Position numbers and translations under genes: made by a program
Source of the DNA: a virus
IMG/VR virus record: IMGVR_UViG_3300049846_001717
Location: 1 to 64,000 of that record
Reading direction: 5' to 3' (one strand)
DNA length: 64,000 bases
Notes under the pieces: model-generated
What the model was told of the DNA's origin: nothing
The model's database searches: none
Seen by the model: only the letters and a program-made list of their open reading frames with translations
Part shown: positions 26,221 through 50,342 of the stretch, in pieces
Layout of the letters: each line of letters starts with the position of its first letter
Numbering within the stretch: the first letter of the stretch is position 1

Positions 26221-26255
26221 AAAAATAAACCCATCGACGGGAGTGCCAATGGGTT
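26221..26255 (-). terminator. intrinsic terminator at end of tRNA region
   Basis: AACCCATTGGC-loop-GTCGATGGGTT + TATTTTT. Confidence 0.6.
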
Positions 26256-26263
26256 ACGAGTAA

Positions 26264-29530: not shown

Positions 29531-29602
29531 AGCTCGTGGCGAGGCTTGAACTCGCTTCTTTCGTTTTAGAGACGAAGGCACCGGCCGATATACCACACGA
29601 GC
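29531..29602 (-). tRNA. amber suppressor tRNA (CTA)
   Basis: Full cloverleaf, TTCGT-CTCTAAA-ACGAA, U73. Confidence 0.85.
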
Positions 29603-30916: not shown

Positions 30917-31791
30917 GAACGGGCTGAGAATACACCCGTTCTAGTCATCCTTTTGAACCATTATCCATCCCACATCCCTGTGAGACGTTCGATTCGTTTC
31001 CACGGTGACTCTCACCGTCGATGACCACAGCGACCTTTTTTAAAGTGTGGCGTTTCACTTGTCGTCTAGCACTTCTCGACACTTCTCCTACCGTCTGCCT
31101 TGCGAGCAGTACACAGTCGCTAAACCGTTACGTGCGGGTCTATATCGAAGACTCTCTGGCTTGGGGCCATCGAATCCGCCGTCTTCCTTGCGGGACGGCA
31201 TTACGCTGTTTATCATGCTTAGACCGAGGAAGTCTTTCCGTTTTTGGATTCGTATGATGGATTTGAACCACCATTAAATTGTTAATAGCAATGTGCCTTA
31301 CCGTTAGGCAAATACGACTTTGAACGAAGTGCTTCCTCAGTTGTTCCAATGACTTTTGATCATCAGAATGCAACACTCCGCGGCTACCGTTCCCCCTGAA
31401 CAGGGTACTACGTCATACGTCACGAACTCGGGCTGGCCTCTTAATAGCGGACAGCTCAGTTCATTAGTATTCCTGTGAAGCTCTTGGTTTCAAGGCCTCG
31501 AACCTCACAAGTATCTGTTACCTATCTGTTCTCGCGTGTGGGTTGAAATGGAGCCCGGCACCACCCGTCAGACTTCATGAACTTGCTTTCCTTCCCGAAG
31601 GAAGGGGCGTCAGCCCACGTTTTTCCCATTTCCACGCTTCGAACCTATCACCGAACCTTCGCCCGATGCTACTGGCTTCGAACCAGTAAAGGCCAGACTT
31701 GTTTGGATGAACCGTCTTGCGACGGCCCGGGTTACAAAGATAGCCCGGTTTATAGGCCTTACGACCTACTGTTCTTACGGAGTCCAAACAC
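30917..31791 (-). ncRNA. GOLLD-like large structured RNA (~875 nt)
   Basis: No credible ORF, many GNRA/UUCG hairpins, GTGTTGCATTC..TCAAAAG..GAACAAC, 3' hairpin GAACGGG-TGTATTCTCAG-CCCGTTC, embedded tRNA; family recalled from memory. Confidence 0.7.
31245..31318 (-). tRNA. degenerate tRNA-Asn(ATT) embedded in GOLLD-like RNA
   Basis: TCGTAT/ATACGA, D arm, ATTG-CTATTAA-CAAT, TTCAAAT loop, CCA. Confidence 0.6.
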
Positions 31792-33502: not shown

Positions 33503-33648
33503 ATTATGTTGTGTGGACTGCTGTAGACTGTAGTAAGGAAGCTCTACGTCGCCGTGAACTCATTAAGTGGCTACAGATTTGGAATTCATTGAAGTTGTCT
33601 TTTGACGGGTGGATTACCCACTTCGTTAAATTCCTACCACACAACAAG

Positions 33649-34303: not shown

Positions 34304-34386
34304 TGCGGATGAAGGGAGTCGAACCCTTAACCTATTCAGTACTAGATCCTAAGTCTAGCGCGTACTGCCAATCCCGCCACACCCGC
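34304..34386 (-). tRNA. tRNA-Leu(TAG)
   Basis: Cloverleaf. Confidence 0.9.
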
Positions 34387-34601
34387 GTATCGTACGTTTT
34401 TGGTAGAACGTACAAACTATCCGAGAGATGCCCCTCCGGCCAATCCATTTTGACGGAATGGATAAACCGTGTTGTTTCCCCGCTACCAAATGATGGTCCT
34501 GTCTATCGGATGCCTTGTCAGTGCGCCGTCATTACGGCGTGCGTCAGAATCGATGAACGTTTCCTAGGACATTCATAAACCCCTCGGCCCTTACTCCTAT
34601 A

Positions 34602-34630
34602 AGTATACTACATCACCGCGTTTTTGGCAA
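34602..34630 (-). promoter_or_regulatory. sigma70-type promoter
   Basis: TTGCCA-17-TATACT. Confidence 0.6.
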
Positions 34631-36527: not shown

Positions 36528-37200
36528 TTATTGTAATAGTTCGAGTTGACCTCGGAGTACGTCTTTCAACCGGACTTTCTTATCCGATCGATGATCGGTG
36601 ACGATACCGTCCTGTTCCCGATACGTTCGAATCTTATCGCCTCGCATTCCCGAACCTACAAGCTGTTTGCGGTCACCATCGGCTTGCCGTTTCGATTGTT
36701 CGGCCATATACGTGGCTACTCGATGTTCCAACAGTTCACGAGCAGTACGACGATTCTGATGTTGACTCTTCTCTGCGGCTTTCGCTTCGATCTTTGTTGG
36801 TTCGTGCCGCATGATGACACATGATTCAGTCTTGTTACGATGTTGACCGCCGGGGCCGGAATCCTTAGTGGTAAACGTCGTAATGTCTGATTCCTTCAAT
36901 CGCCATGACGCAGGTTCTTTGATCTCAAAGACGGCTACGGTGACGGTTGATGTGTGAACCCGACCACGACGTTCGGTGGGCGGAATACGTTGCCATCGAT
37001 GACCACCTGATTCATTCATCAATAATCGGAGCTTTGAATCGGTGCCTTCGATGATCAGGTCAAAGACTACCTCGGTTCTCCGAAATCACGGACGCGCCGA
37101 GACGAGAGGCAAACGACAGATAGATGTTGGCTTGGTTGGACACGAGCAGTTTTGCATCAGTGCCACCTTCACCAGGTCGGATTTCTACGAGGTATTTCAT
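36528..37200 (-). CDS. minimal class-1 peptide release factor (PxT, GGQ), expressed by +1 frameshift at CTT-TGA-C (~223 aa)
   Basis: Frame 0 MKYLVEIRPGEGGTDAKL...GSL*; +1 frame DLIIEG..ESGGHRWQRIPPTERRGRVHTS..GPGGQHRNKTES. Confidence 0.88.
37059..37073 (-). promoter_or_regulatory. RF2-type programmed +1 frameshift site
   Basis: GAGGT-AGT-CTT-TGA-C (internal SD, 3-nt spacer, shifty stop). Confidence 0.85.
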
Positions 37201-37797: not shown

Positions 37798-37871
37798 TAG
37801 CGCTTATGGGAATCGAACCCATCATCAACTGATTGAAAGTCAGTGGTCCAGAACCGATAGACGGAAGCGCC
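37798..37871 (-). tRNA. tRNA-Glu(TTC)
   Basis: Cloverleaf. Confidence 0.87.
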
Positions 37872-37942
37872 GTGCAGGGTTGTTGTTCGCTAGTCATCGG
37901 CCGATGGCATCGCTCCCGCCAGTAACTCCCCAAACTGGCTCA

Positions 37943-38014
37943 TAGCTCTAACGGGAATCGAACCCGTCTTTGCGCCTTGAGAGGGCGCCGTCCTCGCCGA
38001 TAGACGATAGAGCC
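37943..38014 (-). tRNA. tRNA-Glu(CTC)
   Basis: Cloverleaf. Confidence 0.9.
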
Positions 38015-38030
38015 ATACATTAATACATAG

Positions 38031-38105
38031 TCGAAGTGGCGAGATTTGAACTCGCATGATGTCCTGTATCCGAAACAGGCGACTTGCCAATTAGTCCACA
38101 CTTCG
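38031..38105 (-). tRNA. tRNA-Pro(CGG)
   Basis: Cloverleaf. Confidence 0.87.
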
Positions 38106-38401
38106 ATTTGGTGTAATAAACCATCCGGCGGCGAATTCTGCCCCACAACCACCGACGCTAGACCGAGAGGAGTTGCCATGCCGTAGGTAAAGAATCTCGG
38201 ATCTCCCACGAGTTTAGCTGAGCACCCGGCATTGGGAGTGGACTAAGTTGCCCGTATCGAAGGCGAGAAACTGGATTCGACCGACACGACCTCGGTATAC
38301 AGTGACTAACGCGTGCTAAACTCGTATCCATTGCATGTTTCTGCGGTCTTCATATCTACTACACCAATTACTTGGAAACTTCAAACGTTATTCCAAATAA
38401 G

Positions 38402-38476
38402 TCGGAGTGGTGAGAATCGAACTCACTCGAATACCCTGATTCCAAGTCAGGGAGGCTCCCGGCGCCTTTCACTCCG
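38402..38476 (-). tRNA. tRNA-Pro(TGG)
   Basis: Cloverleaf. Confidence 0.82.
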
Positions 38477-38553
38477 ATACTACTCTAGATAGATCTTCAC
38501 TACTTCTCCGATATTCCGCCTCGGGCAATGTCGCCTCGGTACCGTGCGTTCCG

Positions 38554-39240
38554 CTATGCCGCATCCTCGTGAAGATCAAAATCGGACTCCAACATCGCTG
38601 CGCCGTACTTATTCTGCATTTTCGGATTTCGGGAGTTGTCCTTGTTGTGCTGACTCCATCCCATCGACTTGCTGACCTTCCCGTACAGACCACCCTTGAA
38701 AATCTTGTTGTGCAACTCCTGGTGCCGGCTATCGTAGGTCGTGTCCGGAATCCAATGATGGGTGATGATGTTCGGCGTGATCGCCAACACGAACCAATAG
38801 TCATGTTTGACGAAGTAGCCTTTCTTGTCGATCTTTTTCTTGTACGGAAATCCGACGTAGTCGGACCACTCACGATATTGAAAATACGACTTCAACTTCT
38901 CGCTCAGCGATTCGTATTTCTCGACTGTGATCCATCCCAACTTCTGGTTCCGAGGTTCCAACTGGCCGGTACGCCAGTTCATCCACAGAAAATCCTCACG
39001 ACGCGAGAACTGATCGCTGTTGACCAAATCCAACGCCTGCCGAATGTCTCGAGCATCCGTGCGATTGCGGATGTCTTCCCGCAACACGAATCGCCGTGTC
39101 CATCCGTTCTGATAATGCTCCACCGGTTCCCAGTGTCCTGCGCTTTCGTCACGCGCCCATCGGTTTCGGCGCGTCTTTTCGTACTCCGCCCACAACTTCC
39201 GCAACTTCTTTTCTTCTTCGTCCTTATGTGTACGTTTCAT
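38554..39240 (-). CDS. hypothetical protein
   Basis: GAGG SD before MKRTHK. Confidence 0.7.
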   Translation of the reverse strand: MKRTHKDEEEKKLRKLWAEYEKTRRNRWARDESAGHWEPVEHYQNGWTRRFVLREDIRNRTDARDIRQALDLVNSDQFSRREDFLWMNWRTGQLEPRNQKLGWITVEKYESLSEKLKSYFQYREWSDYVGFPYKKKIDKKGYFVKHDYWFVLAITPNIITHHWIPDTTYDSRHQELHNKIFKGGLYGKVSKSMGWSQHNKDNSRNPKMQNKYGAAMLESDFDLHEDAA

Positions 39241-39258
39241 AGAACCTCGTAAAGAAAG

Positions 39259-39332
39259 TGCCAACTCTCGGAATCGAACCGAGCCATGCGGCTCTTCAGA
39301 CCGCCGTTCCGCACCACGTAAACTTAGTTGGC
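39259..39332 (-). tRNA. tRNA-Phe(GAA)
   Basis: Cloverleaf. Confidence 0.82.
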
Positions 39333-39548
39333 TTGGAGCGGGACCGGCTTTTCATTCCGTCAAGGGCTCCCGCTGGACCTGTATATGTGAATGATGGGCG
39401 GTCTTTTGACGGGCCGTTCACAAGAGGCGCCCTGAATCTCGTTACTGAGCCGATTTCACCCATCAAAATGGTGTTCGTATGGTAGTCGGGACCACGCATA
39501 GTGGGCATCGGTCATCCTCCCACAGCTAATCACTACCATACGAACAAG

Positions 39549-39625
39549 TCCGCCCAGTAGGAGTTGAACCTACGTGCAACCAACTAGCCTTTCTACCGTG
39601 TATCAGACGGAGGGCATATGGGCGG
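39549..39625 (-). tRNA. non-canonical tRNA-Ile(GAT), no 5' D arm
   Basis: CCGCCCA/TGGGCGG, CCGT-CTGATAC-ACGG, GTAGG-TTCAACT-CCTAC, A73. Confidence 0.72.
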
Positions 39626-39653
39626 TTATCTGAGTTACATGCGGATATACTTC

Positions 39654-39682
39654 AATCTACTACGATCCATCTTGTGTGGCAA
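39654..39682 (-). promoter_or_regulatory. sigma70-type promoter
   Basis: TTGCCA-17-TAGATT. Confidence 0.55.
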
Positions 39683-39754
39683 GCTCCCACCCGGTTCTGA
39701 CCCGGGCTCTCTGCTTTACCAAAGCAGAATGTCAACCACGATCACTATAGGAGC
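39682..39754 (-). tRNA. tRNA-Thr(GGT)
   Basis: Cloverleaf, atypical T loop. Confidence 0.8.
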
Positions 39755-39773
39755 GTTCGTGAAACCATTGTAA

Positions 39774-39845
39774 AGCTCCATATGGGAGTTGAACCCATTT
39801 ATCCCGCTTACGAGGCGGGTACATCACCCTTTATGCTTATGGAGC
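39774..39845 (-). tRNA. tRNA-Thr(CGT)
   Basis: Cloverleaf. Confidence 0.87.
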
Positions 39846-39915
39846 ATGTGGCTGTGAGATTTTGCACGTTCCCACATTTACTCTCCTCGACTGCTTCTTC
39901 GGAGTACCATCGAAC

Positions 39916-40056
39916 CGCGGGCGTGTTCTGCCATTGAACTATATGTGTACGAGAAGCTGGGCACGGACTGGCACTAAGTATTCCATATTATTCCACACCG
40001 CGTGGCACCGTCTTCAAACTACTCATACGAGGAATTGAACCTCGATCTCACCCTCA
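39916..40056 (-). ncRNA. circularly permuted tRNA-like RNA (T arm before D arm)
   Basis: GGGTG-AGAT-CGAGGTTCAATTCCTCG-TATGAGT...ACACATA-TA-GTTCAATGGCAGAAC-A-CGCCC. Confidence 0.65.
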
Positions 40057-40129
40057 CGCTAACGGTCAGATTCGAACTGACGGCATCCTCATTACAAGTG
40101 AGGTGCATTGGCCTCTATGCTACGTTAGC
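40057..40129 (-). tRNA. tRNA-Thr(TGT)
   Basis: Cloverleaf. Confidence 0.9.
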
Positions 40130-40132
40130 AAG

Positions 40133-40208
40133 TCGGCCCGACTGGAGTTGAACCAGTGTGCACCGTCTAACCTTTCAACCGCTTATCAGGCGGAGGGTAT
40201 ACGGGCCG
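40133..40208 (-). tRNA. non-canonical tRNA-Ile(GAT), no 5' D arm
   Basis: CGGCCCG/CGGGCCG, CCGC-CTGATAA-GCGG, ACTGG-TTCAACT-CCAGT, A73. Confidence 0.72.
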
Positions 40209-40355
40209 GTAGCCGCCTTTTACTGTGGGCCTTCCCACACCGGCTCATGGCCGGAGGTACTCTACGGTTGCCTAATTGGTTGAATGTGGCCAGGTCACTG
40301 ATACGTAGGCACAGCCCTTTCGGGCATCAATACGCACTTCCTCACTGCACATTCA

Positions 40356-40429
40356 TGGACACCACGGGAATCGAACCCGTCACATCGTCATTGCGAATGA
40401 CAATCGCCACCCTTGGTACATTGGCGCCC
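40356..40429 (-). tRNA. tRNA-Ala(CGC)
   Basis: G3:U70. Confidence 0.82.
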
Positions 40430-40499
40430 GAGCCCGCAACCGGCGATGTCCCGGCGAGTTGACCTCCCTTCAACTCTTTCATGCGGCGGATTATTTCAA

Positions 40500-40621
40500 C
40501 GGCGATGGCAGGATTCAAACCTGCATTCGTGTAACTCAAAGCGCTTTGAGAAAGACCATACGGCCACCATGCATAGCAACCGAACGTTCGAACCACGTCT
40601 TATCAGTTAGATGACACCGCC
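40500..40621 (-). ncRNA. tRNA-like RNA with expanded anticodon domain
   Basis: GGCGGTG/CATCGCC, D arm, GCAGG-TTTGAAT-CCTGC, ~65-nt insert. Confidence 0.55.
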
Positions 40622-40624
40622 AAA

Positions 40625-40695
40625 TGGACCGAGTGGGAATCGAACCCACGAGTGCGCCATGCCATGGCGCCAGTTTCCCGTTAGCTTACCGGCCC
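40625..40695 (-). tRNA. tRNA-Ala(GGC)
   Basis: G3:U70. Confidence 0.87.
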
Positions 40696-40715
40696 GAACA
40701 ATGCTTCTAATTTCA

Positions 40716-40786
40716 TGGACCCGGGGAGAATCGAACTCCCATTATCTCGGTGCAAGCGAGATGTCCTCCCATTAAACGACGGGCCC
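40716..40786 (-). tRNA. tRNA-Ala(TGC)
   Basis: G3:U70. Confidence 0.88.
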
Positions 40787-40893
40787 AAATATCTAAACAA
40801 ACTGGACTGCCTTGTGGAACACCAGTCCGCCCTCCATGTTATTTTTCTCGACTTTCATCGGCCACCTATTGATGGGGCAATCCATTTAGACAA

Positions 40894-40968
40894 CGCACCG
40901 TAGAGGAATCGAACCTCTCTATCACTGTTTAACAGACAGTCGTAATCTACCAGACATACCAACGGTGC
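40894..40968 (-). tRNA. tRNA-Asn(GTT)
   Basis: Cloverleaf. Confidence 0.8.
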
Positions 40969-40995
40969 ATAATTCATTACATTTTCTACGGTTAA

Positions 40996-41076
40996 ATCAC
41001 CGGGTGGGAATTGAACCCACGTAGGCTTGCGCCACTGATTAACAGTCAGTTGCCTGAACCATTAGGCTACCGGTGA
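40996..41076 (-). tRNA. tRNA-Asn(GTT) with long variable arm
   Basis: V arm GGC-GCAA-GCC. Confidence 0.85.
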
Positions 41077-41165
41077 GTAACTACCTCTTGACCCCATTAA
41101 ACGATTCGGTTCTAAACCGAGGGAACTCTTGCGAGAAGAAGTACAGATCGTGTGTCGTGTGTAAA

Positions 41166-41375
41166 TGGTGGACCCTGGGATTTCTCAATCCCACAAGTAA
41201 CGTAACCTCGGGACACGACTCCCATTACGGTGCTTGACATGAAACATTCTTGGAGCCCTTAATTCATGTGTCGTGCGACAGTGGAGGCCCGTGTTCAACC
41301 TACTTCAAGGCACGACCCTTGATACAGTGATTGACTCGGTCTTGTAAAATCTTCTTAGGACTCTACACACAGGCC
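41166..41375 (-). ncRNA. unknown ~210-nt RNA with tRNA-like 3' end
   Basis: Ends GGGAT-TGAGAA-ATCCC-AGGGTCC-ACCA. Confidence 0.4.
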
Positions 41376-41378
41376 ATA

Positions 41379-41451
41379 TAACCGCACTCGGATTCGAACC
41401 GAGATTCAGAGGGTCAAAGCCTCTTGTCCTAAACCGTTGGACGATGCGGCA
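41379..41451 (-). tRNA. tRNA-Gln(TTG)
   Basis: Cloverleaf. Confidence 0.87.
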
Positions 41452-41452
41452 G

Positions 41453-41525
41453 TTGCTCTTCTAGGGATCGAACCTAGAGTTTCCTGGGTCAGAGCCAGGC
41501 GTGTTGCCAGTTACACTAAAGAGCA
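41453..41525 (-). tRNA. tRNA-Gln(CTG)
   Basis: Cloverleaf. Confidence 0.9.
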
Positions 41526-41848
41526 AAATGTTCTTTTCTATGACAGTTGGAACATAGTACAATACATTTTTCAACTTCTTGTAAAATTCTTGTCTTACCC
41601 CACGATCCCGCAGAAACCATTGATCCGATGTTACCGTGTTTAATGTTTGGATCTGTATGATGAAAATCTAGACATGCCGGATGTGATTCGGGGCATCGTT
41701 CACATTTCAATGTAGACTTGAATTGTTTCCACCATTCTTGCATTTCCTTACGACGGGTCTGTTTTCTTTGCAAGTACGAATCTTTATTGTTCAGATAATG
41801 TTGTTTGTTATACTGATCTTTCTGTTTTTTGGACCACTTATTTGACAT
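41516..41848 (-). CDS. HNH endonuclease-like protein
   Basis: CERC..CLDFHH..KCIVLCSNCHR; stop lies inside tRNA-Gln. Confidence 0.8.
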   Translation of the reverse strand: MSNKWSKKQKDQYNKQHYLNNKDSYLQRKQTRRKEMQEWWKQFKSTLKCERCPESHPACLDFHHTDPNIKHGNIGSMVSAGSWGKTRILQEVEKCIVLCSNCHRKEHFAL

Positions 41849-41915
41849 AATACTCTCCAATTTTGAGAGGTTGTTATGTATAAGTAGTCTGACCCAAACA
41901 GTTTCAGTCAGATAA

Positions 41916-42101
41916 TTACAACTCACTACATGGGATACAGAATGGTGCTGCGACCTGACGTTTCTTTTCTTCATCGAATCCAACGTCAATGAATTCGATT
42001 TTGTCTTCCGGGATGAAATCCGAACAGTTGACGCAAATCCACGAAATCTGTGATTTACCGTTTTCGATGACCTGCTTCACATTGCGTTTACGAACCAACA
42101 T
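41916..42101 (-). CDS. small Zn-finger-like protein
   Basis: CVNC...CIPC. Confidence 0.55.
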   Translation of the reverse strand: MLVRKRNVKQVIENGKSQISWICVNCSDFIPEDKIEFIDVGFDEEKKRQVAAPFCIPCSEL

Positions 42102-42125
42102 ACGACCTTTCTACGTTAAAGTTGA

Positions 42126-42201
42126 TACCAGTGATGGGTGCCGACCCCATTTCAATTCCGCTTATGAGGCGGACGCCGATGCCGACCGGCTTCCCACTGG
42201 C
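42126..42201 (-). tRNA. tRNA-Met(CAT), atypical T loop
   Basis: TCCGC-CTCATAA-GCGGA. Confidence 0.75.
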
Positions 42202-42238
42202 GTAATGCTATTCCACCCAGGGTATTGCAGAGTAACAG

Positions 42239-42318
42239 TGGTGTGGGAGGGATTCGAACCCACAGGCCGAAGCGCCGGTTTTACAGACCGGTGTTAATTC
42301 CAACATAACTTCCACACC
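42239..42318 (-). tRNA. tRNA-Tyr(GTA)
   Basis: Cloverleaf, V arm. Confidence 0.87.
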
Positions 42319-42519
42319 ATAGATATGTGAGTGCAGTCTCGTTCACCAGTTCCCTGCACTTTCGTTTCACACGTTACGTCACTACAAAGAGTGATGGATT
42401 TTGTTTTCTCACGTTCTCAGAGGAGTATCAGTCCTCTGAGTGCTAAGACATATGACACAACCTACTCTCTAGAATTCCTTTGTGCCACTTCCGGTTCCAT
42501 CAACCGGTCGTCTTGTGTG

Positions 42520-42747
42520 TTGAATTACGTGGTGATGATCCCTCGTTACGAATCGCACGTAACATTGCAATTTAGATGAGTCGCCACCGTCAATCAACTA
42601 GTATGTACGCTGAAAGTGGCCAGCATTTATTTGGTCTGCACATTTAAGACTCTCGCCCAAACTACTTCCCGGCCTTTGCCGCCTTACGGGTATCTCCGGT
42701 TTTCGCCTCATCACCTAGTCATTGCCCAGGTATACTACGTAATTCAA
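42520..42747 (-). ncRNA. unknown structured RNA (~228 nt)
   Basis: Closing helix TTGAATTACGT/ACGTAATTCAA, inner GGTGATGA/TCATCACC. Confidence 0.5.
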
Positions 42748-42748
42748 G

Positions 42749-42821
42749 GGTGATATACCGGTATCGATCCGGTACTCGCGGAGTCACAGTCCACTGTGCA
42801 GGCCACTACACTAATATCACC
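42749..42821 (-). tRNA. tRNA-His(GTG)
   Basis: G-1:C73. Confidence 0.88.
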
Positions 42822-42932
42822 ATAGGTGCAACCCCTAGGCCATCAGTTATTCACCGGCTGGGATGACTCCGCGCAGTGCCGGTCCAGATGCTCTCGTTGT
42901 CAGGGTTGCTGGAGAGCCCACGCTATGCTACA

Positions 42933-43006
42933 TGCTTCGGCTGAGATTCGAACTCAGAAGACTTCCGATTAAGAGTCGGATGCTTTACCTGATAAGCTTA
43001 CGAAGC
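42933..43006 (-). tRNA. tRNA-Lys(CTT)
   Basis: Cloverleaf. Confidence 0.87.
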
Positions 43007-43045
43007 GTAGGAAGGTTGTTTACGGTCTAACCTACAAAGACCACA

Positions 43046-43119
43046 TGCCTCGGGTGGGACTCGAACCCACAACTTACCGCTTAAAAGGCGGCTACTCTGC
43101 GCTATTGAGTTACCAAGGC
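43046..43119 (-). tRNA. tRNA-Lys(TTT)
   Basis: Cloverleaf. Confidence 0.9.
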
Positions 43120-43123
43120 GTTA

Positions 43124-43195
43124 TGCTTCCGGCCGATCCTGACACGGCAACGTGCTGTTTAAAAGACAGCTGTGATTCCTTTTCACCACGGAAGC
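43124..43195 (-). tRNA. tRNA-Lys(TTT), atypical T loop
   Basis: GCTGT-CTTTTAA-ACAGC. Confidence 0.72.
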
Positions 43196-43401
43196 GCTGG
43201 TGCCTCAATGTCGCGGTCACGTTGAGGCGCCGTGAGTGTGCAATATTGCATTTCTGGGACCGCTCACACACGGTCGTGCAATACTGTCCGCTGCTTCTTC
43301 GATTAACCAGTTTTGATGCCCGAAATAAATCCGACGTTCGTTATAGGAACGTTCGGGAAGCAGACTATCGACCTGAACAGAAGTCGGCTCGTACTGCCTA
43401 A

Positions 43402-43473
43402 TGCCCACGGAAAGATTCGAACTTTCTCGGAGAGTTTCGTAGACTCTAATGCTATCCGTTACATCACGAGGGC
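43402..43473 (-). tRNA. tRNA-Arg(ACG)
   Basis: Cloverleaf. Confidence 0.88.
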
Positions 43474-43509
43474 GTTGACGGTGTTTAGTGTGGTTCGCCG
43501 TCACCACTC

Positions 43510-43538
43510 AATATACAACATCTGTCTTCAGTTGTCAA
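43510..43538 (-). promoter_or_regulatory. sigma70-type promoter inside tRNA array
   Basis: TTGACA-17-TATATT. Confidence 0.65.
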
Positions 43539-43555
43539 GTAGCAAACTTCAAAAG

Positions 43556-43641
43556 CGGAAACGATAGGAATTGAACCTACAAGTGCTTATTAGGCACCGA
43601 CTGTTTTCGAGACAGCTTATCGCACCAATGATCGCGTTTCC
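43556..43641 (-). tRNA. tRNA-Ser(CGA)
   Basis: Cloverleaf, long V arm. Confidence 0.87.
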
Positions 43642-43755
43642 AGATTGCAGCAACAAGCACCAACTTTGTATGCATCCGGTGTGCATACCCTTTAATTCGG
43701 CTCCCGTCAGGGGTTGGTTAAAGCTCGACGCCCTCCCCATTCTTGTTACTACAAA

Positions 43756-43842
43756 CGGAAAGTAAGGGATTCGAACCCTTTCCCCGAATTAACGGGGCTG
43801 GTTTAGCAAACCAGTGTAGCGCACCGACTCTACCGACTTTCC
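43756..43842 (-). tRNA. tRNA-Ser(GCT)
   Basis: Cloverleaf, long V arm. Confidence 0.9.
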
Positions 43843-43844
43843 TT

Positions 43845-43884
43845 CGCCCGAAGAGGGACTTTCACCCTCTCTTTCCGTTCGGGC
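43845..43884 (-). ncRNA. tRNA minihelix-like RNA
   Basis: GCCCGAA/TTCGGGC + GAGGG-TGAAAGT-CCCTC + G73. Confidence 0.45.
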
Positions 43885-43894
43885 AGGACGGAAG

Positions 43895-44059
43895 TTACTT
43901 TGTAGCTACCCGTTCTGCGTGCTGACACGCTTTACGATATGCCTCTACGGCTCGTTTGATTCGTTTTACATCTTCCGGCTTTGCAAACTCGTCGATCATC
44001 GTATAGATTTTCTTACGCGCCACAACTGCCTTATGTACTGCCTGCTCTCCGGCGGTCAT
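43895..44059 (-). CDS. hypothetical protein (54 aa)
   Basis: Hand translation MTAGEQAVHKAVVARKKIY...; GAGG SD. Confidence 0.55.
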   Translation of the reverse strand: MTAGEQAVHKAVVARKKIYTMIDEFAKPEDVKRIKRAVEAYRKACQHAERVATK

Positions 44060-44158
44060 ACAACCTCATTAAGTTGGAGTCCAGAACGAGTTGCGGTCAT
44101 GAGCCTTCTCGTATCTCCGCTCGATGGAGCGGTATTCTTCATTTAAACTATCCGGACA

Positions 44159-44230
44159 TACCCTCGGAGGGAATTGAACCCCCTATACTTGGTTCGAAGC
44201 CAAGCGTGATATCCGGTCCACTGCGAGGGC
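44159..44230 (-). tRNA. tRNA-Arg(TCG)
   Basis: Cloverleaf. Confidence 0.87.
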
Positions 44231-44268
44231 GTAGTTTGTTACACTTTGATCAAAACGTTCACCTACAA

Positions 44269-44343
44269 CATGTCCGACAGGATTCGAACCTGCAACAACT
44301 CGTTTTGGAGGCGAGCACCATTAGCCAGTTTGGTTCCGGACAT
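44269..44343 (-). tRNA. tRNA-Trp(CCA)
   Basis: Cloverleaf, G73. Confidence 0.87.
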
Positions 44344-44579
44344 ATACTACGATGGGAGGCGGGCTGGGCACGGGCCGTCAATCGATGCGTCCATCGACGG
44401 TGAGCATTCGCGAAAATACTCACTTCCCGATATTAGTTTGTAACGTACAACACCGTCCCGACACTCCACTAACTTTGAGACGCGTCCACACTCGGACCAC
44501 AAGGCATAGCTGGGGTCGCATCGCCTTGACGGGGAGTAGGCACCCCGTTCTCGTCTCCACTGCGGATCTTACGATCCAG

Positions 44580-44655
44580 AGCCGCTAACCGGATTCGAAC
44601 CGGTACTTCTACATTGGCAATGTAGCGTGCTCAATCCGTTGAACACTATAACGAC
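44580..44655 (-). tRNA. tRNA-Gly(GCC)
   Basis: Cloverleaf, U73. Confidence 0.82.
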
Positions 44656-44662
44656 TTACTTA

Positions 44663-44734
44663 CGGTGTATGCGGGTATCGATCCCGCTTCCTTCCCGTGA
44701 CAGGGGAAGATCCTAGCCAGTAGACGAATACACC
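44663..44734 (-). tRNA. tRNA-Asp(GTC)
   Basis: Cloverleaf, G73. Confidence 0.88.
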
Positions 44735-44742
44735 AACGTATC

Positions 44743-44793
44743 AAAAAACAAGAAACCCCATTCACGGTTTTCAAGGCCGGTGAAGGGGGTTTC
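44743..44793 (-). terminator. intrinsic terminator/attenuator hairpin just before tRNA-Asp
   Basis: GAAACCCC-C-TTCAC..GTGAA-T-GGGGTTTC + TTGTTTTTT. Confidence 0.8.
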
Positions 44794-44817
44794 GGGAAAA
44801 CTTCGGGCGGTTACTGC

Positions 44818-44940
44818 TTAGTTTGCGCCGCCACCCATCCCATCCCCTTCGATTGTATCTTCAATACTGCGCGTACCGAAGGCTTGCTTCGATGCGGGCA
44901 TTGTATTGACTTTATACTGCCAAGTGGTATGGGTAAACAT
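44818..44940 (-). CDS. putative attenuation leader peptide (40 aa)
   Basis: MFTHTTWQYKVNTMPASKQAFGTRSIEDTIEGDGMGGGAN*; 3' codons complementary to terminator 5' arm. Confidence 0.7.
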   Translation of the reverse strand: MFTHTTWQYKVNTMPASKQAFGTRSIEDTIEGDGMGGGAN

Positions 44941-45021
44941 AGGGAAATCCTAGGAGTTGGGTGATTCTGGACTATACATAGTGAGCACGTTCAGAAAACG
45001 GTCACTTTCTTCATATGGTGA

Positions 45022-45050
45022 AGTCTAACACATCGGCCGCCGTTTGGCAA
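45022..45050 (-). promoter_or_regulatory. sigma70-type promoter for leader/tRNA array
   Basis: TTGCCA-17-TAGACT. Confidence 0.65.
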
Positions 45051-45067
45051 GCGTCAGTTTTAACTAG

Positions 45068-45140
45068 TTGGCCCGGAGGGATTTGAACCCCCGCACTTTC
45101 CATTATGAGTGGACCGCTCTGACCGCTGAGCTACGGGCCA
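45068..45140 (-). tRNA. tRNA(CAT), probably Ile2 (lysidine type)
   Basis: Cloverleaf, Ile-like acceptor. Confidence 0.82.
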
Positions 45141-45143
45141 ATA

Positions 45144-45506
45144 TCACCCGATTGGAATATTCGGGGATTTGGATTTGAGTACGTCAATGACACGATCAAA
45201 GCCCCATCGACCGAACATGATGCCACAACATAGGAACAACAACCAGAACATCGGCCAGGTCCAGACCTCATCCATATTACGAACAGACCGAACGATGCCG
45301 GTAAACAACACCGTACATGAAATGCCAAATGCCATCATTTTCGTCGCACTGGGCCGCCCATCAGTTCCGAGCAGGTCCGCGAGGGCCAAGATTTGACGCC
45401 ATCGGGCGTAGATCCATCGAAACACCGGACCGCCACGACTATATGGTCGTTGTACGGAAGGTACTTCAATGGTCTGTTGTCCAACTGGTCGATAGGTCAC
45501 GTTCAA
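45144..45506 (-). CDS. two-TM membrane protein (holin-like?)
   Basis: Two hydrophobic helices. Confidence 0.5.
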   Translation of the reverse strand: MNVTYRPVGQQTIEVPSVQRPYSRGGPVFRWIYARWRQILALADLLGTDGRPSATKMMAFGISCTVLFTGIVRSVRNMDEVWTWPMFWLLFLCCGIMFGRWGFDRVIDVLKSKSPNIPIG

Positions 45507-48719: not shown

Positions 48720-49549
48720 TACGCCAACGTCTTGAATCGAGTTTTGATCTCACGAACCGTGTCAGCGAAATTCGGCTGTTTGTCCGGTTCGGGATGCCAA
48801 CAAATGTTACGTTCGATCAGATTGTATTCTTCCACGATTCGAGCACCGGGAATCGATGATCCATCGGGATTGTGATCTCGACCCAACAACCAGATATGAT
48901 CGGCAACTGACACGGCGGCCGTAACGTCGTGGGTGACCACAACAATCGTGTTGAAATCCGCAACGTTACCTAGTGCATGGATCATATCCATAACCTGTCG
49001 TTGAACAATCAAGTCCAGTCCAGAAAACGGTTCGTCCATGGACAAGAAATGTTCGGAACACATCATCTGCTGGGCGATGGACACTCGTTGGCGCTGACCA
49101 CCCGACAACTGTGCCGGATATACGTCTCGCTTATCGGTCAGTCCAAATCGTTCAAGGAACGATTGAATTTTGTCTCGAAGCGCCGCGCCCTTCAATCCTG
49201 CTTGTGCACCAGCAATAGCAAGATTGTCATAGACTGTACGCCAATCGAACAACAGATAATTCTGTGGCACCTTGCCAACGAGGCCTGCTCGTACCGGCAC
49301 GCCGTCCGGTCCCAACAAGACTTCACCCGATGTGGGCGCCCGAAGACCCGTGAGTACCTGTAATAGCTGGGTTTTGCCGATGCCACTGGGTCCGAGCAAT
49401 CCAATGATCTGTCCTTGTGCCATGTCCGGCCGTTTGATATCCCGAACGGTTAGATTGACATCACGAAGGATCGGATTACCACCCAACGTCAAATTGACAT
49501 TGCGGACTTGGAGAATGGTGGCGTCATATTTGTATGCAAAGTCACTCAT
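48719..49549 (-). CDS. ABC transporter ATP-binding protein (NitT/TauT-like)
   Basis: GPSGIGKT, YPAQLSGGQRQR, MDEPFSGLD, VTHD. Confidence 0.92.
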   Translation of the reverse strand: MSDFAYKYDATILQVRNVNLTLGGNPILRDVNLTVRDIKRPDMAQGQIIGLLGPSGIGKTQLLQVLTGLRAPTSGEVLLGPDGVPVRAGLVGKVPQNYLLFDWRTVYDNLAIAGAQAGLKGAALRDKIQSFLERFGLTDKRDVYPAQLSGGQRQRVSIAQQMMCSEHFLSMDEPFSGLDLIVQRQVMDMIHALGNVADFNTIVVVTHDVTAAVSVADHIWLLGRDHNPDGSSIPGARIVEEYNLIERNICWHPEPDKQPNFADTVREIKTRFKTLA

Positions 49550-49550
49550 A

Positions 49551-50342
49551 TTACTTACGTCCTGCTGTAGTTAGTGACGCGTGTGGACAGAGTTGCCGTT
49601 TGAGATAGACGAAGAATCCATCCTGCAACAAGCCGAACAATAGAAACATGAGTTGAATGGCGAAGATGATTTCGAGATTCAAATGTCGTTCTTGATTTGC
49701 AAGAACCACACCTACACCACCCTCGTATCGAACCAATACCTCAACACTGGTCAACATCATCCAGACCATTGCGGCATTGCCTCGAATCAAGTCAAGCATT
49801 TTGTCCAGTGTGCCTAGTACGAGAACTTCCCACACAATATGCCACTCCGACATGCGAAGGGTTCGGGCGTGTTCGAATCGTTCAGTCGGCACATTTTGAA
49901 GTACATCATCCACCGACGGCAACAGGAATACGACACCGAAGAAGGTCAGAAGGAAGATTTTCAACTCATGTCCGTCGGCCGCGAGGAAATTAAAGAGCAA
50001 TCCAAGGCCTGCCATTGCGAGAAATCGACCCAGCGAAATGGCTTTGACAATCGGACGAAACACTGGCAGTGCCGTAAGATACCCGAGCGCCAGTGAAATA
50101 CCAACGACAAGGCCCACCGCTTCGAAATTTGTCCATAGACTACTGAGCATGGACGCGGCGAAGCTCGTGTTATCCAGTTCAAGACTCCATAACTGAGTCC
50201 ATGTAACGAGAATGGCCCACGGAGACGGAAAAATCGCCGGGAGCAACGTCCAGGCCAGCAGAAATGCGGCCAGCTCGACCATGGCGATCTTAGTGAATGT
50301 TACTTTGTTGATGCTTTGATTTGGAACAAACCATCCACGCAT
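49551..50342 (-). CDS. ABC transporter permease (NitT/TauT-like)
   Basis: ~6 TMs, FEHARTL EAA-like loop. Confidence 0.82.
   Translation of the reverse strand: MRGWFVPNQSINKVTFTKIAMVELAAFLLAWTLLPAIFPSPWAILVTWTQLWSLELDNTSFAASMLSSLWTNFEAVGLVVGISLALGYLTALPVFRPIVKAISLGRFLAMAGLGLLFNFLAADGHELKIFLLTFFGVVFLLPSVDDVLQNVPTERFEHARTLRMSEWHIVWEVLVLGTLDKMLDLIRGNAAMVWMMLTSVEVLVRYEGGVGVVLANQERHLNLEIIFAIQLMFLLFGLLQDGFFVYLKRQLCPHASLTTAGRK

Follow-up and report, generated by a model that had tools for sequence, protein, structure and literature searches.

A putative ribosome-mediated attenuator ahead of a 28-gene tRNA block in a phage tRNA array

The DNA analyzed here (the window) comprises positions 1 to 64,000 of a virus contig of 98,055 nt, IMG/VR record IMGVR_UViG_3300049846_001717, which encodes a myovirus-type baseplate wedge protein and a CCA-adding enzyme. 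It carries a tmRNA, a GOLLD RNA, and ∼50 tRNA genes, all on the minus strand between positions 26263 and 45635. The minus-strand spacer between the tRNA-Met and tRNA-Asp genes of this array is occupied by a cassette consisting of a promoter, a 40-codon open reading frame (ORF), and an intrinsic terminator. We propose that this element may be a leader-peptide transcription attenuator, operated by the ribosome, which controls read-through from the promoter at 45050 into the block of tRNA genes starting with tRNA-Asp; judged from sequence and folding models, the proposal has in our view an even chance of being correct. It is also conceivable, at somewhat less than an even chance, that the tRNA supply of phages carrying large tRNA arrays is regulated through a leader mini-gene whose codons sample the anticodons of the downstream block, in which case the present leader, sampling ∼22 anticodons of a 28-tRNA block, would be the extreme case. 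An earlier note on this DNA had described the cassette as a sensor of all tRNAs placed at the head of the array. The attenuator proposed here differs from that version in that it is matched to a block, does not sit at the array head, and has its reach limited by internal promoters.

The promoter, the ORF, and the terminator all lie on the minus strand at the coordinates given in the earlier note (Table 1). Sites of the promoter family TTGCCA-N16/17-TAnAyT occur six times in the window and 12 times in the 98-kb contig, exclusively on the minus strand, against 0.12 expected per window, and the remaining TTGCCA-family sites directly precede GroEL or tRNA genes. The promoter ahead of the leader was therefore taken as real. 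Transcription is predicted to start near 45015, which leaves a 5′ untranslated region (UTR) of ∼75 nt, above the usual length for a leader and without predicted structure (z −0.85). The short ORF close behind this promoter has a start codon and a ribosome-binding site (RBS), and the GGAG motif used by other genes of the phage stands at a similar spacing. Its codon-usage score is 0.193 per codon, compared with 0.28 ± 0.11 for the phage genes, and 3.5% of spurious ORFs reach this value; small ORFs with gene-like scores are abundant throughout the array. The terminator stands between the leader ORF and the candidate regulated genes, ending 8 nt ahead of tRNA-Asp. It is one of approximately four clean terminators on the minus strand of the contig, and the only other one found inside the array on this strand is at 26255.

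The position of the cassette defines which genes could depend on it. No promoter fits between the terminator and tRNA-Asp, and the next promoter-like site is the one at 43538. Transcription of tRNA-Asp, tRNA-Gly(gcc), tRNA-Trp, tRNA-Arg(tcg), a 54-aa ORF, tRNA-Ser(gct), and tRNA-Ser(cga) thus needs read-through of the terminator. The two internal promoter-like sites that had been noted near 43510 and 39654 are indeed present; the first of them would allow tRNA-Arg(acg) and the genes behind it to be transcribed without passage through the terminator, and together they would limit the exclusive reach of the putative switch to six tRNAs. The 28-tRNA block as a whole decodes 17 amino acids and also holds an odd tRNA-like gene besides the 54-aa ORF. 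The notion that tRNA-Asp heads the array had to be abandoned, since tRNA-Ile(tat) and tRNA-Met both precede it.

The codon content of the leader may point to a relationship with this particular block. Readability was scored with standard wobble rules for the 39 non-start codons of the leader. The 28 tRNAs of the block read 39 of the 61 sense codons and 35 of these 39 leader codons; the exceptions are GTC, CCC, and two GGG, both of the latter within the structural tail. Such a match has a probability of 2.7e-4 under a binomial model with uniform codons and of below 1 in 4,000 when set against 4,000 random open frames, and the leader ranks first among 300 short ATG ORFs of the genome. Dinucleotide shuffles of the leader ORF that stay open yielded P = 0.003, or P = 0.012 after adjustment for scanning all block ends, whereas the uniform binomial restricted to tRNAs called by ARAGORN at default settings gave P = 0.089. 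The match was stable to the choice of wobble rules (strict, standard, or superwobble). When a window of 28 consecutive tRNAs was slid through 24 positions, the top match started exactly at tRNA-Asp and decayed within two steps. Paired isoacceptors of the block are mirrored by paired leader codons (Lys AAA/AAG, Gln CAA/CAG, and Ala GCA/GCC), the Ser(gct/cga) tRNAs by AGT/TCG, and the three Thr tRNAs by ACA/ACG/ACC. Overall, the leader samples 22 of the 27 distinct block anticodons (null 17.5 ± 2.4; P = 0.044).

The earlier note had instead emphasized codon diversity, and its counts are accurate: codons 2 to 30 include 27 different codons, with all four Thr codons and both Lys, Gln, and Phe codons in use, and the peptide contains 18 amino acids, with Leu and Cys absent. 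As a designed signal, this diversity does not stand out. The 27 distinct codons out of 29 have P = 0.024 for a fixed window and P = 0.087 for a window chosen afterwards, and the whole leader is unexceptional among random open frames of spacer composition, with respect to both its 30 distinct codons out of 40 (P = 0.49) and its 18 amino acids (P = 0.25). Among 136 short ATG ORFs of the genome, 2.2% match the codon diversity of the leader. Nor does a sensor of all tRNAs fit a leader devoid of Leu and Cys codons in an array that carries seven tRNA-Leu genes and one tRNA-Cys gene. Five of the seven tRNA-Leu genes and the tRNA-Cys gene sit far downstream. We read the high codon diversity as a by-product of the large block rather than as a design for sensing all tRNAs; from its codons, the leader looks like a block-matched sampler.

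RNA folding provides the second line of evidence. The spacer is among the most structured of the 24 spacers in the array (z −3.9), while spacers with likely protein genes range from z −0.7 to −1.4. Most of the leader body is predicted to fold into a long hairpin, H1, whose base pairs codons 3 to 7 with codons 30 to 34 and which is a candidate 1:2 or pause hairpin. The G-rich strand at the base of H1 is the same strand that can pair with the terminator arm. In the resulting three-helix hairpin, the candidate antiterminator (2:3), the outer helix joins GAAGGGG (44850 to 44844) to CCCCUUC (44788 to 44782) of the terminator 5′ arm. Stepwise minimum-energy folding of the growing transcript predicted 1:2 until the free 3′ end reaches 44788, then 2:3, which forms before there is a terminator 3′ arm, with the 3′ end at 44782 to 44758, and finally 1:2 plus the terminator from 44752 onward. 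In this folding model, the ordered 1:2/2:3/3:4 series is a trp-type topology. H1 and the block codon match, neither of which was seen in the earlier note, favor the attenuation reading.

On this basis, the cassette might operate as follows. RNA polymerase would start near 45015 and transcribe the 40-codon leader, whose body would fold as H1. With smooth translation to the stop codon at 44820, the ribosome would melt the alternative hairpin at its inner helices, after which the terminator (3:4, 44793 to 44752) would form and transcription would end ahead of tRNA-Asp. A ribosome stalled anywhere in approximately codons 2 to 27 would keep H1 open, so that the G-rich codons 31 to 37 could pair with the C-rich stretch 44812 to 44782, including CCCCUUC of the terminator 5′ arm. 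This 2:3 pairing would delay the terminator and allow polymerase to enter the tRNA genes. Being composed mostly of single copies of codons read by the block, the leader would report a shortage of any of them and provide feedback on the phage tRNA supply. Slow decoding, caused by a host tRNA shortage or by cleavage by a tRNA-targeting defense nuclease, would cause the terminator to be passed, and restored decoding would shut it again.

Table 1. Coordinates of the cassette, the candidate regulated genes, and neighboring features in the window
Feature	Position	Strand	Details
Sigma-70-type promoter	45050-45022	-	-35 TTGCCA 45050-45045, 17-nt spacer, -10 TAGACT 45027-45022
Shine-Dalgarno-like AGGA	44948-44951	-	7 nt ahead of ATG
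Leader ORF	44940-44818	-	40 codons, MFTHTTWQYKVNTMPASKQAFGTRSIEDTIEGDGMGGGAN; stop codon included; predicted by three gene-calling pipelines
Hairpin H1 (putative)	44933-44839	-	codons 3-34; −34.7 kcal/mol, z −3.86; 0/200 shuffles fold as well
Alternative three-helix hairpin (candidate antiterminator, 2:3)	44850-44782	-	−30.3 kcal/mol; stop codon in apical loop
Intrinsic terminator	44793-44743	-	15-bp stem 44793-44752, −19.3 kcal/mol, 9-nt loop, UUGUUUUUU to 44743
tRNA-Asp	44735-44662	-	first tRNA behind terminator
tRNA block, Asp(gtc) to Glu(ttc)	37798-44735	-	28 genes; candidate regulated genes
Internal promoter-like site	43538-43510	-	TTGACA-17-TATATT; 11/12 matches
Internal promoter	39682-39654	-	TTGCCA family
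tRNA-Met	45140-45067	-	upstream of leader cassette
tRNA-Ile(tat)	45635-45545	-	upstream of leader cassette
GroEL	47327-45708	-	

Several observations weigh against the attenuation reading, and some of them concern the RNA switch itself. The complementarity between the leader end and the terminator arm, to which the earlier note had drawn attention, exists but does not exceed chance (P = 0.11): the arm duplex amounts to −15.8 kcal/mol compared with −12.6 ± 2.6 kcal/mol in shuffles, 78% of which pair the arm. Of the 17 nt that make up the terminator 5′ arm, the candidate antiterminator spans only 7, and on the full transcript it gives a fold 6.3 kcal/mol weaker than the one with the terminator. 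When the ribosome was modeled at equilibrium as a 30-nt mask, terminator formation was predicted wherever the ribosome stood. Since equilibrium folding always favors the terminator, the switch is possible only as a kinetic device, like the classical attenuators. It had also been suggested that a ribosome finishing the leader masks the antiterminator. This cannot be upheld in that form, since the competing helix lies 24 to 30 nt 5′ of the stop codon, beyond the ribosome footprint, and a ribosome terminating at the stop codon would melt only the inner helices. Of the earlier note, the architecture and the attenuation logic hold in silico, whereas the specifics of its codon sampler, i.e., the diversity and the arm complement, are unsupported.

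The codon evidence is subject to reservations as well. The match weakens to P = 0.017 to 0.033 against 39-codon windows of real genes, and the adjusted shuffles give P = 0.057 with a conservative set that omits two weakly supported tRNAs. The leader leaves five block anticodons (cag, cgg, ctc, tcg, and tgg) unsampled, and it contains no codon for Leu although tRNA-Leu(cag) adjoins the block. Sensed codons appear once or twice each, without the tandem runs of classical leaders, and much of the codon signal equals an absence of Leu, Val, and Cys codons, which is expected of a hydrophilic peptide too. Furthermore, most of the array would escape the switch through the near-consensus promoters at 43538 and 39682.

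No close relative of the phage was found in IMG/VR, GenBank phages, or GTDB genomes. A GroEL search of viral contigs returned 80 loci with at most 64% identity, and none of the 36 checked carries a tRNA array. The 120-aa gene product encoded upstream of tRNA-Met, the 54-aa ORF, a 460-aa ATPase, and an exact 19-mer of the terminator had no relative among viral contigs, and the 120-aa protein had no match in GenBank phages. A metagenome scan recovered a single locus, L082, with a 60% identical 120-aa gene. This locus, the single distant relative that was read, has neither leader nor terminator at the cassette position, where a shortened tRNA-like piece and an HNH-type ORF are found. In GenBank phages, the DNA matched at tRNA-Met only. 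The baseplate protein matches distant phages only, the best being Microcystis phage Mel-JY01, which has a single tRNA. The leader peptide is an orphan without homologues outside near-identical strains: among 5.8 billion proteins, only its own 90%-identity cluster was recovered, and no true homologue was found among 1.84 billion representative proteins. The repetitive 1114-aa protein P0019 was disregarded. Residues 1 to 33 of the leader are identical in two near-identical strains (proteins P0014 and P0016), and the tails diverge among such strains (GMGGGAN, GMGGGYA, and VGTQGGSF). This variable tail (44818 to 44850) coincides with the G-rich repeat GGGAT GGGAT GGGTGG, that is, with the strand of the putative switch.

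Against this background, other readings of the cassette have to be considered. It could be an independent small transcription unit, in which the promoter at 45050 drives a ∼270-nt mRNA for a small protein, or a structured small RNA (sRNA), that ends at a leaky constitutive terminator; the downstream tRNAs would then be transcribed by unregulated read-through and from the internal promoters, and the codon match would be a coincidence or reflect a hydrophilic peptide written in the usual codons of the phage. The ∼270-nt spacing between promoter and terminator is indeed a classic signature of sRNAs and small genes, the equilibrium model predicts constitutive termination, and several other spacers of the array are equally structured. 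The gene-like codon usage of the leader, its recognition by three pipelines, the many small ORFs with gene-like scores in the array, and the modest significance of the codon match against windows of real genes would all suit such a unit. Nevertheless, no other small ORF of the array has its own terminator, and a true transcript end 8 nt before tRNA-Asp would leave six tRNAs and the 54-aa gene without a dedicated promoter. A stand-alone small protein would also be expected to be conserved beyond near-identical strains, whereas this peptide has no homologue and its tail varies even between such strains; it is unusual for a protein gene to have its coding body spanned by such a long hairpin (z −3.86), and the best-matching tRNA window begins exactly at the terminator. 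On balance, we regard a small independent unit as rather unlikely.

Cis-acting control without the ribosome, in which an antitermination protein of the phage or the host would serve as a temporal switch or the H1/H2 RNA would do the sensing while the ORF is incidental, appears improbable. It would be compatible with the strong and well-defined RNA structure and with a terminator directly preceding genes that lack a promoter of their own, and neither the arm complement nor the codon diversity needs translation. Yet the region matches no Rfam family, T-boxes included, even at E <= 10, no leader repeat was noted in the remainder of the contig, and the RBS, the gene-like codons, and the block-matched codon set would be left unexplained. 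A spacer with no dedicated function, in which a fortuitous open frame happens to coincide with an internal promoter and with a hairpin that has a T-run, is very improbable. Codon diversity and arm complementarity at chance level would agree with it, as would the missing arrangement in L082. It is opposed by the strongly non-random promoter family, by a terminator that is among the few canonical ones in 98 kb, by the structure of the spacer (z −3.9), and by the codon match (P ∼0.003 to 0.06).

Other features of the array were recorded alongside the cassette. Rfam searches at E <= 10 matched the spacer to tRNAs only, and a T-box riboswitch, considered as a candidate, had no match at this threshold in 44600 to 45200. 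Four further inter-tRNA spacers on the minus strand fold far better than shuffles and have no Rfam match: 33503 to 33647 (z −5.4), 43642 to 43755 (z −4.0), 40788 to 40892 (z −3.7), and 42319 to 42747 (z −3.35). To judge from these folding scores, they are likely novel structured RNAs. The promoter family comprises two sub-families, both on the minus strand. Sites of the form TTGCCA-N17-TA(G/T)A(C/T)T populate the tRNA/GroEL region (window 26420 to 47388), and cgctgTTGCCA-N16-TATATT occurs in the 73- to 95-kb region (contig 73644 to 95118), where a conserved 'cacccc..ac(G)GAG' leader comes next, ahead of start codons. The promoter at 34630 to 34602 precedes a 10-codon mini-ORF, MNVLGNVHRF, with its ATG near 34575 (34545 to 34630, minus strand), whose codons Leu CTA, Gly GGA, Val, and Asn fit the tRNAs located next, Leu(tag), Val, Gly(tcc), and Asn(att). 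The stretch behind this promoter was examined for a second cassette, and no terminator was found ahead of tRNA-Leu(tag) at 34386.

The 120-aa ORF (45144 to 45506, minus strand) between tRNA-Ile and tRNA-Met encodes a conserved small membrane protein with 13 homologues, invariant motifs DLLG.D.RPS.TK and FW.LFLC, and no Pfam or PHROG family; its homologue in L082 (1064 to 1315) likewise lies among tRNA genes. Twelve further relatives of the 120-aa protein (P0002 to P0013), at 47 to 69% identity, are represented by their protein sequences. The GOLLD RNA (Rfam RF02032) is full length (30921 to 31383, minus strand; 172 bits versus a gathering score of 150), lies within the tRNA array, and encloses tRNA-Asn(att) at 31245 to 31318. 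Finally, three minus-strand items of the array relate to recoding: an amber-suppressor-type tRNA with anticodon cta (29531 to 29602), a release-factor-like ORF (36528 to 37022), and a tRNA-like gene (40356 to 40451) with a 4-nt anticodon (acca) according to ARAGORN. Their combination hints at stop-codon or frame recoding in this phage.

To our knowledge, little has been described of how tRNA genes are regulated in phages, and our literature searches found no publication on leader-peptide control of tRNA genes. If the attenuation reading is true, the element would carry the attenuation principle over from the supply of amino acids to that of tRNAs and widen its scope from a single amino acid to many codons simultaneously, and it would represent a compact natural sensor of tRNA depletion. 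Phage tRNAs have been tied to escape from host defenses that cleave tRNAs (PMC10264068, PMC11464382, and PMC11555353).

A comparable arrangement of genes occurs in Caulobacter phage phiCbK (JX100813, 47200 to 52700), in which the GenBank annotation places rho-independent terminators 12 to 130 nt ahead of three tRNA blocks. The 45-aa gp083 (CDS 49540 to 49677) is followed by an annotated terminator (49745 to 49769) located 22 nt upstream of a block of Pro, Pro, Lys, Lys, Leu, Leu, Leu, Ser, and Ser tRNAs that reads 12 codons, and 21 of the 44 gp083 codons are readable by these nine tRNAs (composition-matched P = 0.0007). A 32-aa ORF ahead of a Phe/Val/Ile/Gln block has 11 of 31 readable codons (P = 0.027). 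Our literature searches found no publication describing the gp083 cassette as an attenuator. As at the present locus, gp083 is a small ORF with a terminator ∼20 nt ahead of tRNAs and with codons enriched for the block. It differs from the present leader in that the two share no sequence similarity, its block has 9 tRNAs for 4 amino acids, and its codons are repetitive rather than diverse. As judged from gene order and codon content, the phiCbK cassettes support the existence of a leader-terminator-tRNA design elsewhere and are no evidence on the present locus.

Among bacterial systems, toiL is a multipurpose upstream ORF (uORF) that senses many translation stresses (PMC12121999). The proposed element resembles toiL and the antibiotic-responsive ribosome-mediated attenuators in having a short uORF on which position-dependent stalling would remodel the downstream RNA, so as to yield a general sensor of translation stress. 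Whereas toiL acts by RBS occlusion and Rho-dependent termination in a toxin-antitoxin operon, the present leader is codon matched and has an intrinsic terminator ahead of tRNAs. The trn operon of Anabaena is a long cyanobacterial tRNA array that, as far as these sources describe it, is induced under translational stress (PMC8421152 and PMC10272220). Like the present array under our proposal, it is a large accessory set of tRNA genes that stays silent until translation is impaired. As far as PMC10272220 describes it, the Anabaena array is under the control of the transcriptional repressor TrcR, not of a leader peptide, and it belongs to a bacterial megaplasmid, not to a phage. With T-boxes (Rfam RF00230), the element would share a choice between terminator and antiterminator that reports the state of tRNA, and its G-rich GGGUGG resembles the T-box core. 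It has no specifier-loop architecture, sensing as proposed here would depend on a ribosome engaged in translation, and the genes under T-box control encode synthetases and transporters, not tRNAs.

The leader-peptide transcription attenuators of the enterobacterial amino-acid operons include trpL, hisL, and the multivalent thrL and ilvGMEDA leaders. The present cassette departs from them in several respects: its candidate regulated genes are tRNAs instead of biosynthetic enzymes, ∼22 anticodons are sampled once or twice each, where the classical leaders have tandem codon runs for one to three amino acids, and its leader, with 40 codons, is longer. A terminating ribosome would also leave the competing helix uncovered. 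In common with these leaders, it has a promoter-proximal short ORF with an RBS, a predicted set of overlapping 1:2, 2:3, and 3:4 pairings, and an intrinsic terminator directly before the candidate regulated genes. As in the amino-acid leaders, the quantity sensed here would be the decoding speed of particular codons.

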